A stretch of DNA of 8,002 bases from the IMG/VR virus record IMGVR_UViG_2690316285_000016, one strand, 5' to 3'. The notes beneath the pieces were generated by a model. The model saw nothing but the letters and a program-made list of their open reading frames with translations. It was not told the origin of the DNA and did not search any database. The position numbers and the translations under genes were made by a program. Below, piece after piece: positions 825-5,322 of this stretch; position 1 is the first letter of the stretch; each line of letters begins with the position of its first letter. Source of the DNA: a virus. Lineage: Duplodnaviria; Heunggongvirae; Uroviricota; Caudoviricetes.

Positions 825-2678
825 TTATGATGATGCCGGTGCATTTATCTCCAGCACCAGACTTTCTATCTCAACGCCATACGCTGCATTTTTGGTAATA
901 TCCGTCAGCGTCAGCGCATTCAGCCCCAGTGTCAGACTGTCTTTTATGACCTGGAATGCCGGGCCAGCCACTCCATTCAGTTTCGGAGTAACCGTGGCAC
1001 TGCCGGCGGTGAACACCAGCTCCAGCGTCAGCCAGTCGTTACTGTAATTCCCGAACTCGCCCAACTTTGTGTTTCCTGCTTTCTTGTGATGCATCAGATT
1101 CAGTTTGCCGTCTGTGGTCTGGGTGAAGAACGACATCAGGAACGGGTTACCAGTCCCGGTCATCGCCACGACGTCAGGTAACGCTACATCGGTATACAGA
1201 TAAATTCCCAGACCGAACTGGTTGTTGGTCAGTGCGCCTGACAGTCGAAACTTACAGCTCAGTCTGCCACCCCGTGTCAGCAGGGAGACTGCGTCATCCA
1301 CCGGGCGCGTCAGGGACCAGGCTTTATTGCTCTGCTTGGTGATCTTAAATACACCATCTGACAACTGAACTCCGCCATTCTTAATGCTCCAGCCCTGCGC
1401 AGCAGCGTCTCCGGCTGTCGGCAACAGGGAGATTGTGCGTATGGATGCATCTTCAGACGGCCCCGATGGCGTGTCGCCGCCGGGCGAGGGTTTGATTTCC
1501 GGTGCCTTACCACTAATGAAGGCTAAGGTGCGACCGGCTACGTTCAGAATAGCAGTTGCCATACGATCGGGAATAATGCCACGACGCGCCCATGAGCTGA
1601 AATGCGTCGGGCGATTTGATGATACCCAGTTTTTGTTCGTTCGGGATGCCGAACCGTAATAACCAGACCCGGCAATATCAGGATCTTCTGACGGGTTGTT
1701 TGTCGGTGTATTAACTCCGCTACCATCGGTCATAAAGGGAACAAAATAAATCTGCTGGGATTCTTTACCTTTATATGCACCATATACCACTTCATATTGC
1801 GTACCGTGTTCTTGTTTCCACGCGTATGTCGTGTCGCCACAAATCCAGGGGACTGATGCCGGACTTCCACCGTGACACTGCGCCGCCAGCCCGGCAAGGT
1901 CAGCACGGAACTGCTGTACCATTGCAAGAAATGCTGCTGGCTGCTGGGCGTAACTGGCATTCGTCATATCGAATTCCCCCTGCATCCAGCATATCGCCAG
2001 CAAAACGTTTTTCGGGTTTTTCTGCAATGCTGCCTTCGTGCGGAAAAGCAGATCCTGATATAACGGCTTACCCACTCCCCAGCGAGCCGAATCCTGACTG
2101 GCCCCCGTGGACTCGCTGAATGTCCCCTCCGTGCCCTGGGTGAATGCCGAACCACCACAACAGCATGGTACCAGCAGGATCCCCGCATTATTAGGGATAT
2201 ACGGAAGCAGTTTTTTGGCAATATGTAAGCCCTGTCCGACACAGCCGTACTGCCCTTTGCTCAGGTCAGCCCGGGGATGGTTAATCGTACTCATATCCTG
2301 AACATCATGCAGACAATGGTCAGCAGGAATGATGTCGTTAAATACGCATACTTCACCACCGGGAGTCACTGTGTTACGACGGGCCAGTTGCTTAATGCGC
2401 GGATGGGGCGCATCGTATGAATCCGGAAGCGGAAGACCTTCACCGTAAGCCATGGCATTGGATTGCCCGGCCAGTACGATGACGTAGTACCACTCCGGCT
2501 CAGTTGCACCACTGACGACCACATCACCTTCTGCTGCAATCGCCTGCATCAGGGTATAAGGGGTTATGGCCACCGGACTACCAAACGGCTGCCAGCCCTC
2601 CTTCAGTTTTTGTGTCAGTCGTTTCGCAAGGTCTGACGGCGATGCCGCCCTGACCACGTCATAGTGTTTAAATGCCAT
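825..2678 (-). CDS. nanS-p: Prophage-encoded sialate (9-O-acetyl-Neu5Ac) O-acetylesterase, NanS-p-like; SGNH/SASA hydrolase core, 617 aa
   Basis: 617-aa ORF with SD GGGAGGA 5 nt before ATG 2678..2676. SGNH block I motif VIVLAGQSNAMAYGE (GQSN encoded at 2468..2457, candidate catalytic Ser73). N-terminus MAFKHYDVVRAASPSDLAKRL... is typical of the DUF1737 N-domain of NanS-p proteins in EHEC prophages. Position between the tRNA/stx slot and the holin matches Stx-phage synteny. Confidence 0.85.
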   Translation of the reverse strand: MAFKHYDVVRAASPSDLAKRLTQKLKEGWQPFGSPVAITPYTLMQAIAAEGDVVVSGATEPEWYYVIVLAGQSNAMAYGEGLPLPDSYDAPHPRIKQLARRNTVTPGGEVCVFNDIIPADHCLHDVQDMSTINHPRADLSKGQYGCVGQGLHIAKKLLPYIPNNAGILLVPCCCGGSAFTQGTEGTFSESTGASQDSARWGVGKPLYQDLLFRTKAALQKNPKNVLLAICWMQGEFDMTNASYAQQPAAFLAMVQQFRADLAGLAAQCHGGSPASVPWICGDTTYAWKQEHGTQYEVVYGAYKGKESQQIYFVPFMTDGSGVNTPTNNPSEDPDIAGSGYYGSASRTNKNWVSSNRPTHFSSWARRGIIPDRMATAILNVAGRTLAFISGKAPEIKPSPGGDTPSGPSEDASIRTISLLPTAGDAAAQGWSIKNGGVQLSDGVFKITKQSNKAWSLTRPVDDAVSLLTRGGRLSCKFRLSGALTNNQFGLGIYLYTDVALPDVVAMTGTGNPFLMSFFTQTTDGKLNLMHHKKAGNTKLGEFGNYSNDWLTLELVFTAGSATVTPKLNGVAGPAFQVIKDSLTLGLNALTLTDITKNAAYGVEIESLVLEINAPASS

Positions 2679-2871
2679 GAATCCTCCCGGCCGGGATAAT
2701 ATTGTGAGTAAAATAAGGAGCGGGCTGAAGTCCGGAAGTTACAGGACAATGGCAGAAGAGAGACGACAGCCCGCAATTCGAAAAAGACCGCGCAGTTGCG
2801 CAGAGTGATTACTATGGGGTATTATTCGCCAGCTGAAATATTACTTCACGTTTTATTGTTTATTCCTTGCC

Positions 2872-2900
2872 GCCCGCGTCTCCCAGCGCGGGCTTTTTTT
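2872..2900 (+). terminator. Plus-strand intrinsic terminator-like hairpin + T7 (duplicate at 4291-4319)
   Basis: GCCCGCG-tctcccag-CGCGGGC perfect 7-bp GC stem followed by TTTTTTT on the plus strand; identical copy in repeat 2. Confidence 0.5.
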
Positions 2901-2906
2901 GCCCAC

Positions 2907-2929
2907 AAGAAAACCCCTCCGGAGAGGGG
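2907..2929 (-). terminator. Minus-strand intrinsic terminator-like hairpin + U-tract (duplicate at 4326-4348)
   Basis: Minus RNA CCCCUC-UCCG-GAGGGG (6-bp GC stem, tetraloop) followed by UUUUCUU; lies 6 nt from the plus-strand terminator, forming a convergent pair. Confidence 0.5.
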
Positions 2930-3177
2930 CTAAAGCCGCGTATCTGTATCATCATGCACATGGTGCCGGGTGCCTCCCGGTGAGTTCAGCCCGGTGCCAC
3001 TAAACCCGCGTCATTCTCGTTTTGATAATCAGAGATTATACCGTCACCAGTCGCCCCTCCGCTCAGGGGGATTCACCATGCGAAATTTTTTTAACAAATG
3101 CCCAGTCTGACAGGCAACTGTCAACTTACTGAATTGTGAGCAACATAGCATTTAACGGGGAACCTGTTTTCTGCAGT

Positions 3178-3204
3178 AAAAAGGCCCACCGGAGCGGATG
3201 GGCC
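3178..3204 (-). terminator. Minus-strand hairpin + U5 (duplicate at 4597-4623)
   Basis: Minus RNA GGCCCA-(10-nt loop)-UGGGCC followed by UUUUUAC; forward A-run 3178-3182. Confidence 0.4.
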
Positions 3205-3395
3205 TGGAAGGATAGCGGTCATGTGATGCCGGTTTCCCGGTAACTCAGCACCGGTATCTGAGTCAACGTTTTCTCTACTGGGTCATTTCCGATACGCCCT
3301 GCCTGCTGACAGGCTTTCATCACATCTGAAAATATAGCACCCTGACTGATACTGTAGTACCTAAGGTTCCAGAAACTGTGATGTATCCGGCACAG

Positions 3396-3416
3396 AAAAG
3401 CCCCTCCGGAGAGGGC
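3396..3416 (-). terminator. Minus-strand hairpin + U4 (duplicate at 4815-4835); diverged homolog of the 2907-2929 element
   Basis: Minus RNA CCCUC-UCCG-GAGGG followed by GCUUUUCUG; weaker (5-bp stem). Confidence 0.35.
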
Positions 3417-3809
3417 TGGAGAGTGGCGCTATGTGCCATTGCATGATGCCGGGTGCCTCCCGGTGAATTCAGTACCAGCACCTGAATCCGCGATTATCCC
3501 ATATACCTACTCGCTGATTGCCCCTCCGCACAGGGGGATTCACCATGCCAGTTTCTTTTAACAAACTCCCCGCAAACCAGACAACAGTCAACCGCCTGAA
3601 TTGTGAAGTATTTAAAAATTTCTCCCGCTAACTGATACCCGGCTAACAGTCTGGCGTTTTCTTTTTCAGCAACGGGAAAGCAACAACCACCACACCCGCC
3701 ACCAGCACACCGTCAGCCAGCACTGACATTATCCGGCTGCTGCAATGCCATTCACAAAAACAGTAAGCAATCACTTTTTACCGTAACAGGTGATAATCCA
3801 GATATGTAT

Positions 3810-4136
3810 CTACCCCAGATGAGTAATCCGAAGTTCATCCATACCACAGGTCCTGGCTATTCTGTTGTACTCCTGAACAAGAGCAAATAATTCTGAATTA
3901 GCAACCATGAACTCATCGCAAACCCTCTGTATAGCATCACTATTCAGAATAATAACGTCTCTTCCCGAAAGACGATCAGGAGTACAGAACAAAACTGTCA
4001 AACGGCTGAAGGCCTTTGCTCGTGCTGCATTGACTATATCAATACGCTGCCTAAGGATGAAACACCCCGACGCCTCATCAATATTCACTCTACCCACACC
4101 ATATGAATGATAAATATTTAATGCTGAAAAAACCAT
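3810..4136 (-). CDS. Hypothetical protein; unrecognised cargo ORF in AT-rich insert (108 aa from first ATG at 4136; ORF-track 117 aa assumes TTG start at 4163)
   Basis: Only ORF over 100 codons in the 2.3 kb between tRNAs and nanS-p, and on the same strand as the late operon. No strong SD before either start; no motif I recognise. Local sequence is AT-rich (hand count 25 G+C in 90 nt over 4141-4230). Could be non-coding or a gene remnant. Confidence 0.35.
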   Translation of the reverse strand: MVFSALNIYHSYGVGRVNIDEASGCFILRQRIDIVNAARAKAFSRLTVLFCTPDRLSGRDVIILNSDAIQRVCDEFMVANSELFALVQEYNRIARTCGMDELRITHLG

Positions 4137-4230
4137 TAGACCGTATAACAAACACTCAATCAATACTTAACAGAACTTTTATTTTTGACAAACATAAAAT
4201 ATTTTCAACAATATCCTGAGCCAGGTATAT

Positions 4231-5036
4231 NTATGGGGTATTATTCGCCAGCTGAAATATTACTTCACGTTTTATTGTTTATTCCTTGCCGCCCGCGTCT
4301 CCCAGCGCGGGCTTTTTTTGCCCACAAGAAAACCCCTCCGGAGAGGGGCTAAAGCCGCGTATCTGTATCATCATGCACATGGTGCCGGGTGCCTCCCGGT
4401 GAGTTCAGCCCGGTGCCACTAAACCCGCGTCATTCTCGTTTTGATAATCAGAGATTATACCGTCACCAGTCGCCCCTCCGCTCAGGGGGATTCACCATGC
4501 GAAATTTTTTTAACAAATGCCCAGTCTGACAGGCAACTGTCAACTTACTGAATTGTGAGCAACATAGCATTTAACGGGGAACCTGTTTTCTGCAGTAAAA
4601 AGGCCCACCGGAGCGGATGGGCCTGGAAGGATAGCGGTCATGTGATGCCGGTTTCCCGGTAACTCAGCACCGGTATCTGAGTCAACGTTTTCTCTACTGG
4701 GTCATTTCCGATACGCCCTGCCTGCTGACAGGCTTTCATCACATCTGAAAATATAGCACCCTGACTGATACTGTAGTACCTAAGGTTCCAGAAACTGTGA
4801 TGTATCCGGCACAGAAAAGCCCCTCCGGAGAGGGCTGGAGAGTGGCGCTATGTGCCATTGCATGATGCCGGGTGCCTCCCGGTGAATTCAGTACCAGCAC
4901 CTGAATCCGCGATTATCCCATATACCTACTCGCTGATTGCCCCTCCGCACAGGGGGATTCACCATGCCAGTTTCTTTTAACAAACTCCCCGCAAAACAGA
5001 CAACTGTCAACCGTCTGAATTGTGAGACATTTAAAA
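4231..5036. repeat. Direct repeat copy 2 (~806 bp), abutting the tRNA-cluster terminator
   Basis: Same comparison as copy 1. Position 4231 is a single ambiguous n exactly at the copy boundary (copy 1 has c at 2812). Confidence 0.85.
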
Positions 5037-5058
5037 AAAAGGCCCGCAAAAGCGAGCC
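5033..5058 (-). terminator. Intrinsic terminator immediately downstream of the tRNA cluster (minus strand)
   Basis: Minus RNA GGCUCGC-UUUU-GCGGGCC (7-bp stem with one G-U) followed by UUUUUUUU (forward A8 at 5033-5040); starts 15 nt after the tRNA-Arg(UCU) 3' end. Confidence 0.5.
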
Positions 5059-5072
5059 AGGGAAAATAAGTG

Positions 5073-5149
5073 TGGCGCGTTGTACTGGATTCGAACCAGT
5101 GACCGATTGCTTAGAAGGCAATTGCTCTGTCCGGCTGAGCTAACAACGC
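5073..5149 (-). tRNA. tRNA-Arg (anticodon UCU), 77 nt with encoded CCA
   Basis: Minus-strand GCGTTGTTAGCTCAGCCGGACAGAGCAATTGCCTTCTAAGCAATCGGTCACTGGTTCGAATCCAGTACAACGCGCCA; cloverleaf built by hand: 7-bp acceptor stem, D stem GCTC/GAGC, anticodon loop CUUCUAA, T loop TTCGAAT. Third tRNA of an ileZ-argN-argO-like trio as found downstream of Q in Stx phages. Confidence 0.85.
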
Positions 5150-5162
5150 ATGATGCAGATAA

Positions 5163-5239
5163 TGGACCGCCATCGGGGACTTGAACCCCGCGCAGCCAGC
5201 TTCGAAGGCTGGCGCTCTTTCCTGATGAGCTAATGGCGG
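5163..5239 (-). tRNA. tRNA-Arg (anticodon UCG), 77 nt with encoded CCA
   Basis: Minus-strand CCGCCATTAGCTCATCAGGAAAGAGCGCCAGCCTTCGAAGCTGGCTGCGCGGGGTTCAAGTCCCCGATGGCGGTCCA; acceptor CCGCCAT/ATGGCGG, anticodon stem CCAGC/GCTGG with loop CUUCGAA, T stem CGGGG/CCCCG with TTCAAGT loop. Starts with C1-G72, which is unusual but pairs correctly. Confidence 0.8.
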
Positions 5240-5246
5240 TATGTGA

Positions 5247-5322
5247 TGGTGGCCCTTGCTGGATTTGAACCAGCGACCTGGCGATTATGAGTCGCTCGCT
5301 CTCACCACTGAGCTAAAGGGCC
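5247..5322 (-). tRNA. tRNA with CAU anticodon, most similar to tRNA-Ile2 (lysidine, ileX/ileZ-like); tRNA-Met cannot be excluded; 76 nt
   Basis: Minus-strand GGCCCTTTAGCTCAGTGGTGAGAGCGAGCGACTCATAATCGCCAGGTCGCTGGTTCAAATCCAGCAAGGGCCACCA; closely resembles E. coli ileX as I recall it; canonical cloverleaf with T loop TTCAAAT. Confidence 0.85.

Follow-up and report, generated by a model that had tools for sequence, protein, structure and literature searches.

The interval between the late tRNA genes and the nanS-p-like esterase gene of a lambdoid prophage is a known sRNA compartment, and its doubling is most likely an assembly chimera

Tree et al. (2014) described a "convergent sRNA pair in the PR' moron site" in the Sakai prophages Sp3/4/5/9/10/11/15/17 (PMC4104026). 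These pairs are convergent dyads of Hfq-binding sRNAs, such as EcOnc27/AsxR located 3' of stx2B in Sp5 (PMC4104026; reviewed in PMC7873438). EcOnc27 corresponds to sRNA103 of O157:H7 and overlaps STnc100, a family represented in EDL933 by 11 copies, all of them transcribed and one confirmed by northern blotting. A related sRNA of EPEC, PasD, adjoins an esterase gene, and its two forms, PasD1 and PasD2, were described in strain E2348/69 (Pearl Mizrahi 2021, PMC8550237; Zhu, Shabalina & Storz, 2026 preprint). Members of the STnc100 family are abundant in uninduced lysogens as Hfq-bound RNAs (PMC5331693, PMC8550237, PMC4104026). For the homologues, the evidence is from Hfq-CRAC plus northern blotting (Sakai), RIL-seq plus northern blotting (EPEC), and RNA-seq plus a single northern blot (EDL933).

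The stretch of viral DNA analyzed here, referred to as the window, is 8,002 nt long and covers part of the late region of a lambdoid prophage. The initial annotation had listed the order Q, methyltransferase, tRNA trio, slot, esterase, pinholin, DUF1327, and endolysin. All these elements are present in that order, the endolysin gene only with its beginning. The genes and sites that frame the slot are as follows:

8002-7586, minus strand: C-terminal part of Q (PF03589), the remainder being N-masked
6421-5363, minus strand: N6/N4 methyltransferase (Pfam profile)
5247-5322, minus strand: tRNA-Ile2(CAU) (ARAGORN); the identical UTI89 gene is annotated as tRNA-Ile
5163-5239, minus strand: tRNA-Arg(UCG) (ARAGORN)
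5073-5149, minus strand: tRNA-Arg(UCU) (ARAGORN)
5058-5041, minus strand: terminator-like hairpin with a T-run after the tRNA trio (terminator scan)
5072-2679, minus strand: the slot, from the tRNA trio to the esterase
2679-2812, minus strand: conserved esterase leader, homologous to the ECs_1207 leader of Sakai Sp5 (alignment)
2803-2788: terminator-like hairpin in the esterase leader (terminator scan)
825-2678, minus strand: nanS-p-like SASA carbohydrate esterase, 617 aa (Pfam DUF1737, SASA, and DUF6645)
752-459, minus strand: P21-type class II holin
454-140, minus strand: DUF1327 (Pfam profile)
84-1, minus strand: endolysin, first ~28 codons only

The tRNA trio (5073-5322) lies downstream of Q/PR' and the methyltransferase gene and scored 58-72 bits with the Rfam tRNA model; its Sakai Sp5 equivalents are annotated as ileZ/argN/argO. 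The esterase gene, a conserved ORF, forms the boundary of the slot. An identical protein occurs in 530 blocks of the assembly collection, with S. sonnei 53G among the matches listed (10 loci).

The proposal that the slot corresponds to the stx interval of Stx phages held up. In Sakai Sp5 and in a Stx2a phage the order is three tRNA genes, stx2A, stx2B, an STnc100 gene (208 and 160 bits, respectively), and a nanS-p-like ORF, and the interval between the last sRNA unit of the window (B3, below) and the esterase gene aligns with the stx2B-to-ECs_1207 interval of Sp5. The slot is also free of toxin genes, as had been claimed: tblastn with Stx2A and Stx2B against the window gave only chance matches (E ≥ 0.44), none within the slot, so that neither stxA nor stxB lies between the tRNAs and the nanS-p-like gene, as they do in Stx-converting prophages. 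The idea of an insert carried instead of the toxin had to be abandoned, however, as the STnc100 gene beside nanS-p is a constant resident that coexists with stx. The whole slot is accounted for by features other than stx. Related loci carry varied cargo in the slot (TolA-like, PmrD-like, or IS), and IS insertions into it occur in many S. sonnei-like genomes.

The slot contains two direct repeats of 806 nt each (5037-4232 and 3618-2813), far beyond chance, with a GC content of 51% versus 41.5% in the intervening segment of 612 nt (4230-3619). The copies, A and B, share 764 identical nt and differ by six mismatches, all at the upstream end. These fall in the first 42 nt of copy B, whose six variants are typical of the locus type linked to the intervening segment, and the rest equals copy A. 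A cmscan search with the STnc100 model (Rfam RF02076, gathering score of 47 bits) yielded six collinear matches in the window, all on the minus strand:

4232-5037, minus strand: sRNA module copy A, three tandem STnc100-family genes, each with its own intrinsic terminator
4996-4807, minus strand: unit A1, RF02076 at 123.6 bits, terminator 4836-4818
4768-4595, minus strand: unit A2, RF02076 at 30.1 bits, terminator 4624-4601
4529-4320, minus strand: unit A3, RF02076 at 161 bits, terminator 4350-4331
2813-3618, minus strand: sRNA module copy B, three tandem STnc100-family genes
3577-3388, minus strand: unit B1, RF02076 at 122.5 bits
3349-3176, minus strand: unit B2, RF02076 at 30.1 bits
3110-2901, minus strand: unit B3, RF02076 at 161 bits, terminator 2931-2912

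Units A1, A3, B1, and B3 exceeded the gathering score, each over the full-length model (1-206), and share the architecture, the terminator, and the prophage late-region location of the STnc100 family. The middle unit of each module is diverged, as its 30 bits indicate. A2 and B2 stay below the gathering score (E = 0.0014 for the window and 3.9e-05 for a 231-nt stretch), and yet they display all eight of the eight closing-stem pairs, the internal hairpins, and a 3' intrinsic terminator (AGGCCCATCCGCTCCGGTGGGCCT followed by TTTTT). Four of the eight closing-stem pairs are doubly compensated (AUGUGAUG/CAUCACAU versus GCAUGGUG/CACCAUGC). We filed A2 and B2 as diverged STnc100 relatives at the score level of PasD and not as curated members; PasD1 and PasD2 themselves reach 38-41 bits on the STnc100 model. 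The window units share with PasD the 5' core GCAUGGUGAAUCC. In the alignment, the 3' part of PasD, including the UGUGAG seed and the terminator, was absent from all six units, which are thus not PasD genes.

The three units of a module differ in the single-stranded region that precedes the terminator; hence, their targets probably differ. Folding of single sequences performed no better than that of shuffled ones (z = -1.0 for A3 and -1.9 for the convergent RNA described below) and was uninformative, so the covariance model was relied on instead.

The description of the slot as mostly non-coding is correct for proteins, but the interval is dense in RNA genes and holds 22 terminator-like sites against 2.8 expected (terminator scan). 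Nor is its content unrecognized: the repeats are RF02076 arrays of an organization already published (PMC4104026). The count of a single ORF longer than 60 aa was incomplete, with two more mechanical ORFs above this length overlapping the tRNA/first-unit region and a 43-aa DUF3927 gene also missed.

It is highly improbable that the repeat units encode small proteins and not sRNAs. Mechanical ORFs of 42-55 aa appear in copy A and again in copy B, and some EDL933 STnc100 copies carry ribosome footprints (ribosomal coverage value up to 3.2). The recurrence, however, is due only to the duplicated DNA, whereas conservation lies in the terminators and in base-paired stems that carry compensatory changes, the covariance model scores up to 161 bits, and the family members are Hfq-bound RNAs seen on northern blots. 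Both the small-peptide reading and that of an stx remnant were rejected on the ORF list, the repeat scan, and tblastn.

The repeat units, read as sRNA genes, face a gene on the opposite strand:

2719-2900, plus strand: convergent sRNA gene of the EcOnc08/21/42 type, with a strong terminator at 2872-2893, overlapping the esterase leader
4232-4319, plus strand: 5'-truncated duplicate of the last 88 nt of the convergent gene

The convergent gene is near-identical to a 182-nt Hfq-associated EPEC sequence, E2348C_1409.E2348C_1408.IGR, a candidate from Hfq RIL-seq (Table S6, PMC8550237). The northern probe of Tree et al. for EcOnc08/21/42 (PMC4104026) matches the window from 2826 to 2792. B3 on the minus strand and the EcOnc08/21/42 homologue on the plus strand converge, and the interval is collinear with Sp5, in which AsxR is the convergent partner of STnc100. 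No match to AsxR (RF02703) or AgvB (RF02702) was found in the window at E ≤ 1, whereas the same scan gave 88 bits for AsxR of Sp5. The window thus has no 51-60-nt antisense-strand sRNA with the conserved 3' region ...GCCCGAACCCACTCGGGCTTTT of AsxR/AgvB, and its plus-strand terminator sequence differs from theirs. A plus-strand OmrA-B match (23-25 bits, under the gathering score of 40) overlaps the EcOnc08/21/42 homologue, is probably driven by the terminator, and was rejected; weak Rfam matches to Plastid-ycf2 (antisense to tRNA) and Yar_3 were dismissed as not meaningful.

The locus therefore resembles the Sakai dyads in its position downstream of Q, PR', and the tRNAs and directly upstream of the nanS-p-like ORF, in the sense STnc100-type sRNA facing a convergent sRNA with back-to-back terminators, and in the shared upstream motif CACAATTCAG..TTGACAGTTGCCTG and esterase leader. 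It differs in the lack of stx, in having three tandem sense units versus one, and in the partner, which is of the EcOnc08/21/42 type and not AsxR/AgvB.

The initial annotation expected the slot to be expressed under Q-dependent late transcription, a view at odds with the abundance of family members in uninduced lysogens, which implies promoters of the units' own. A scan for the sigma-70 consensus gave no convincing promoter ahead of the sense units. Published 5' ends disagree, PasD2 (172 nt) starting at the G of GCAUGG and EcOnc27 giving bands of ~235/247 nt on northern blots, so that the promoters are putative. Read by eye, the sequence has extended -10-like elements before A1/A3 (TGtTAAAAA) and before A2 (TGcTATATT).

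The lower-GC segment between the repeats, designated INS, contains two protein genes:

3619-4230, minus strand: INS, a common prophage late-region module
4163-3810, minus strand: orphan protein gene, mechanical ORF of 117 aa
3774-3643, minus strand: DUF3927 (PF13064) peptide gene, 43 aa, 95.6 bits against a curated cut-off of 25, annotated likewise in RefSeq

The true start of the orphan gene is probably the GTG at 4088, giving a product of ~92 aa. Its homologues (35-64% identity) begin at query residue ~26, and the substitutions by codon position (35/33/55) show a third-position excess. The protein matched no Pfam family and had no relation to the 247-aa protein encoded at the equivalent place in EPEC. 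The AlphaFold model is a two-helix hairpin (mean pLDDT of 71.6), for which Foldseek found nothing among viral structures at E ≤ 0.001. With the DUF3927 gene, the window also follows the gene order of the PasD loci, in which Q, DUF3927, the sRNA, and the SASA esterase come one after another.

At least 80% of INS is present in 1,183 of the 5,426 complete E. coli genomes, and in 12 out of 12 natural contexts it is preceded by tRNA-Arg and an invariant 46-nt spacer. INS is a separate, very common module, which in nature directly follows tRNA-Arg in a second prophage type. In E. coli 2D (NZ_CP059003.1) and L025-type loci the order is tRNA-Ile, tRNA-Arg, the 46-nt spacer, INS, and STnc100; INS with its downstream part is 99.2% identical between E. 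coli 2D and the window, but these loci, unlike the window, have no sRNA module upstream of INS.

Direct repeats around a segment of lower GC content, in a slot known to receive IS elements in S. sonnei-like genomes, could suggest that the repeats are the ends or relics of a mobile element (an IS, MITE, or composite transposon) with the AT-rich segment as its cargo. The window, however, gave zero inverted-repeat pairs, no transposase ORF, and no duplication at the junctions; the repeats are fully explained by the sRNA genes and their terminators, and INS, in the 1,183 genomes that carry it, has no repeats at its sides and immediately follows tRNA-Arg in every case. None of the features of an IS, MITE, or transposon was thus found, and we consider this explanation effectively refuted, its probability being negligible.

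The module itself is widespread. Of the 5,426 complete E. coli genomes, 2,728 have at least part of a single module and 353 have 80% or more of it. S. sonnei 53G (HE616528.1), UTI89, and E. coli ATCC 11775 have a single module without INS at this locus. The S. sonnei 53G type matches the window at 100% identity to either side of the 1,419 bp by which the window is longer, with an identical esterase, and accordingly the methyltransferase-to-esterase gap is 1,265 bp there versus 2,684 bp in the window; the single-module locus of UTI89 is 97.5-99% identical. In the 5,426 complete E. coli genomes, the single module was common and the doubled form absent. The repeats are therefore known elements in a standard single-module setting, largely as had been named in advance as grounds for giving up the novelty claim, but the exact 2.3 kb arrangement was found nowhere else.

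The two repeats around an AT-rich insert are indeed in the sequence as first described. Their doubling is probably an artefact and hinges on one position:

4231: single N exactly at the novel junction where copy A ends and INS begins

It is the only isolated N of the window, and the chance of its falling on the junction is about 1 in 8,000. Copy A ends with ...GAATAATACCCCATA and INS begins with ATATACCTGG..., and the homology switch between locus types falls exactly at 4231. From 8002 to 4232 the window is 100% identical to L007-L009, which are of the S. sonnei 53G type with one module, and from 3576 to 1 it is 100% identical to L008 of the same type. From 4230 to 3447 it is 100% identical to L025, a different locus type. 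On its left side the junction stops within the EcOnc08/21/42 sRNA gene, on its right INS stands without its 46-nt spacer, and homology at the junction does not extend beyond ~3 nt. The order INS, module, esterase occurs in three complete genomes, e.g., E. coli 2D, and is natural, so only the left junction is suspect.

A 199-nt junction query was not found in the 5,426 complete E. coli genomes, and the exact junction pattern was absent from the genome (GTDB representative), viral (IMG/VR), and metagenome (JGI) contig collections. A copy-A-specific pattern revealed no other instance of the junction in genome contigs, and every locus retrieved by exact look-ups of the esterase, DUF3927, and MTase proteins was of the single-module, INS-first, or IS-interrupted kind, without the junction. 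In another draft covering this prophage region (L011), the methyltransferase gene contains a single-N join that is obviously chimeric.

Judged from sequence comparison, the doubled repeat-insert-repeat structure is probably a scaffold or gap-fill chimera of two prophages joined at 4231. The alternative is that two resident lambdoid prophages recombined, leaving six STnc100-family genes, and that the N is an ambiguous base call. Both building blocks are natural, with the INS-module-esterase order present in complete genomes; lambdoid late regions are mosaic, with varied slot cargo at related loci; the 764-nt identity could mean a very recent event or gene conversion, and a rare true recombinant would look alike except for the N. 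Against this stand the position of that N, the minimal junction homology, the truncation of the convergent sRNA gene and loss of a spacer kept in every other context, the lack of a second instance in any collection searched, and the analogous chimera in L011. We consider such a recombination unlikely. That the doubling is real and arose by very recent recombination, giving one late region six STnc100-family genes and 1.5 convergent partners, is, in our estimate, quite unlikely; if true, it would capture the PR' slot while it enlarges by gaining sRNA cassettes that share a conserved scaffold but vary ahead of the terminator.

Under the chimera reading, the real content of the slot would be three STnc100-family sRNA genes arranged in tandem on the strand of the late operon, each with a closing stem, internal hairpins, and a Rho-independent terminator, and a convergent EcOnc08/21/42-type gene on the opposite strand would abut the esterase leader. 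By homology, the STnc100-family units would be Hfq-binding, base-pairing regulators made in the lysogen. Upon induction, Q-modified polymerase could plausibly read through the many terminators to the esterase and lysis genes. The assembly would have strung a segment of the second prophage into the first at the N at 4231.

Altogether, we consider it likely that the slot is the known sRNA compartment of the PR' moron site, that INS is a separate module, and that the 2.3 kb doubling, the only unusual feature of the locus, is an assembly chimera, its best explanation. The slot content is already described as the sRNA compartment of lambdoid late regions and adds nothing beyond published work, which removes the false lead of an stx-equivalent slot with unknown cargo. 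Two lessons follow: "non-coding" prophage intervals ought to be scanned with Rfam before novelty is claimed, and an isolated N that coincides with a homology breakpoint in a draft assembly ought to be treated as a join. RNAs of this kind (EcOnc27/sRNA103, PasD, AsxR, and AgvB) matter for the rewiring of host regulation by prophages.

The genes of the late operon all lie on the minus strand, running from 8002 to 1, and the order proposed in the initial annotation was confirmed via Pfam matches and near-identical annotated loci.

8002-7586, minus: antiterminator Q (PF03589), sole visible part
7585-6848 and 6780-6509: N-masked stretches
6421-5363, minus: N6/N4 DNA methyltransferase
5322-5073, minus: tRNA-Ile2(CAU), tRNA-Arg(UCG), tRNA-Arg(UCU)
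5072-2679: the slot between the tRNAs and the esterase gene
4088-3810, minus: orphan ORF (homologue in locus L028, 911-1261)
2719-2900, plus: convergent sRNA gene, adjoining the esterase leader
2678-825, minus: SASA/DUF1737/DUF6645 esterase
752-459, minus: P21-type holin
454-140, minus: DUF1327
84-1, minus: endolysin, first ~28 codons alone, at the window edge

The N-masked stretches cover Q's 3' end, the PR'/qut region and, ahead of the methyltransferase gene, a 65-aa ORF; in identical loci such as L007, this ORF gave a sub-threshold TrmB-like HTH match (18 bits vs. a cut-off of 25.6). The endolysin gene of the S. sonnei-type locus (L007 8595-8765) is degenerate: it is a 56-aa ORF whose similarity to UTI89 RrrQ, a lysozyme, is confined to the first 18 residues, and IS elements come next. 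The window therefore probably represents a cryptic, lysis-defective prophage. No Stx homology was found within the window.

The slot contains two direct repeats of 806 nt each (copy A, 5037-4232, and copy B, 3618-2813), with 764 nt identical and six differing positions at the upstream end, separated by a 612-nt segment of 41.5% GC. The repeats around an AT-rich insert described initially are thus real as sequence. An Rfam scan detected six collinear STnc100 (RF02076) matches, three in either repeat, all on the strand of the late operon. In both repeats, units 1 and 3 scored 122-161 bits across the whole model, and the middle one 30 bits (gathering score, 47). This middle unit keeps 8/8 family pairs of the closing stem, four of them via compensatory double changes, along with the internal hairpins and a terminator of its own; it is a diverged relative. 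All three units have a common 5' core (GCAUGGUGAAUCC…) and scaffold, diverge in the stretch preceding the terminator, and end with an intrinsic terminator (22 terminator-like sites in the slot vs. 2.8 expected). In many S. sonnei-like genomes (L029-L031, L033, L034, L036 and L037, ~6780-8040 in locus coordinates), an IS3-family element with a 385-aa transposase sits within the sRNA module and interrupts the tandem STnc100 array, the methyltransferase-to-esterase gap being ~2,533 bp vs. 1,265 bp without the insertion.

The convergent gene is near-identical to the Hfq-associated EPEC candidate E2348C_1409.E2348C_1408.IGR, equated with EcOnc08/21/42 by Pearl Mizrahi et al. (PMC8550237), and the EcOnc08/21/42 northern probe of Tree et al. 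(PMC4104026) matches the window at 2826->2792. Sequence and model matches show STnc100-type genes arranged in tandem on the late strand, with their terminators, and one convergent sRNA gene.

Elements of this kind are already known. Tree et al. 2014 (PMC4104026) described convergent Hfq-binding sRNA genes downstream of the Q-antiterminated PR' promoter, exemplified by EcOnc27/AsxR, 3' of stx2B in the Sakai prophage Sp5, with the same organization in Sp3, 4, 9, 10, 11, 15 and 17. The order in Sp5 is ileZ-argN-argO, stx2A, stx2B, STnc100 (208 bits), AsxR on the opposite strand (88 bits) and ECs_1207; an Stx2a phage has the same order (STnc100, 160 bits). The stretch running from unit 3 up to the esterase gene aligns with the stx2B-to-ECs_1207 interval of Sp5, conserved upstream motif and leader included, which supports the proposed stx-equivalent position. 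The claim that the insert stands there instead of toxin genes did not hold, since both Stx phages carry stx2AB and STnc100 in the same slot: the sRNA genes are constant residents, and stx is inserted between them and the tRNAs. STnc100 downstream of stx2B has been discussed as EcOnc27/sRNA103 (PMC12711010, PMC12370729), and EDL933 has 11 transcribed copies. EPEC PasD1/PasD2 scored 38-41 bits on the STnc100 model and occupy the same neighborhood (Q, DUF3927, PasD2, esterase); a 2026 preprint argues for their common ancestry with STnc100. The CUCACA hexamer, reported as the target site of PasD (seed UGUGAG), occurs on the minus strand at 5026, 4559, 3140 and 2708: it recurs in the conserved CTCACAATTCAG box preceding units A1, A3 and B3 (TTCACA at B1), with one further occurrence in the esterase leader. 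It could simply belong to the promoter regions, or act as a pairing site should longer transcripts contain it.

The AT-rich module (INS, 4230-3619) is common: among 5,426 complete E. coli genomes, 1,183 have at least 80% of it, in most cases at ≥99% identity. Its products are a DUF3927 peptide (43 aa, 95.6 bits) and the orphan protein. The ORF initially called unrecognized belongs to a small orphan protein family with homologues down to 35% identity. These begin at query residue ~26, which implies that translation starts at the GTG at 4088 and yields ~92 aa. Third codon positions carry an excess of substitutions, and the protein is probably real; its predicted structure is a two-helix hairpin, for which no informative fold match was found among viral structures. 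Clustered at 50% identity, the family forms ~20 groups, and its members are ~91-95 aa long. The ORF lacks RefSeq annotation in E. coli 2D. In a Logan contig, an AraC-type (HTH_18) regulator gene precedes a 56%-identical homologue by 21 nt, and a 45-aa ORF follows.

Outside the N-masked stretches, the window from 8002 to 4232 and from 3576 to 1 matches the S. sonnei 53G-type loci at 100% identity; these differ in carrying a single module and a methyltransferase-to-esterase gap of 1,265 bp. The extra 1,419 bp begins at 4231, the window's one isolated N, after which 784 nt are 100% identical to another locus type, L025 (Q, two tRNAs, spacer, INS, STnc100, PmrD). At the junction, at most ~3 nt are common to both sequences, and neither end at the N is a natural module boundary: the left one breaks off midway through the EcOnc08/21/42 gene and the right one lacks the otherwise invariant spacer. 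The junction occurred in none of the 5,426 complete E. coli genomes, nor in the genome, viral and metagenome collections. The main alternative, a rare genuine recombinant, appears unlikely. An evidently chimeric join of the same style as that at 4231 is present in L011 (GCA_900158365.1, FTVJ01000050.1), another draft of this prophage region, in which a single N at 3885 joins unrelated sequence into the interior of the methyltransferase gene, with methyltransferase-tRNA-STnc100 sequence duplicated on either side. As to whether the architecture is common, rare or novel, the precise 2.3 kb layout is unique, but it is most likely an assembly artefact. Of the sigma-70-like matches in the slot, the best (4185-4212, plus strand; TTGACA, 16 nt, AACAAT; 10/12) lies within INS and is directed into the truncated convergent-sRNA copy at 4232-4319, a juxtaposition that would be meaningless if the junction is artefactual.

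Homologues bind Hfq, are expressed in uninduced lysogens and base-pair with host and island mRNAs (PMC4104026, PMC8550237, PMC5331693); by homology, the units of the window may do the same. Each unit would have its own promoter, and upon induction Q-modified polymerase from PR' would pass about eight terminators into the esterase and lysis genes. From the differing pre-terminator stretches we infer different target specificities, so that the three units would act on different targets. INS directly followed tRNA-Arg and an invariant 46-nt spacer in 12/12 natural contexts read, and what lies downstream varies: an STnc100 unit, then TolA-like genes, a PmrD-like gene or the esterase. Alternative cargo downstream of the DUF3927 module was seen in the related loci L017-L026 (4130-5500, locus coordinates), with two TolA-domain ORFs in L017, L018 and L020 and one called in L023, an antisense PmrD-like gene in L019 and L021-L026, and a full-length or truncated esterase. 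This varied cargo illustrates the cassette-like variability of the site.
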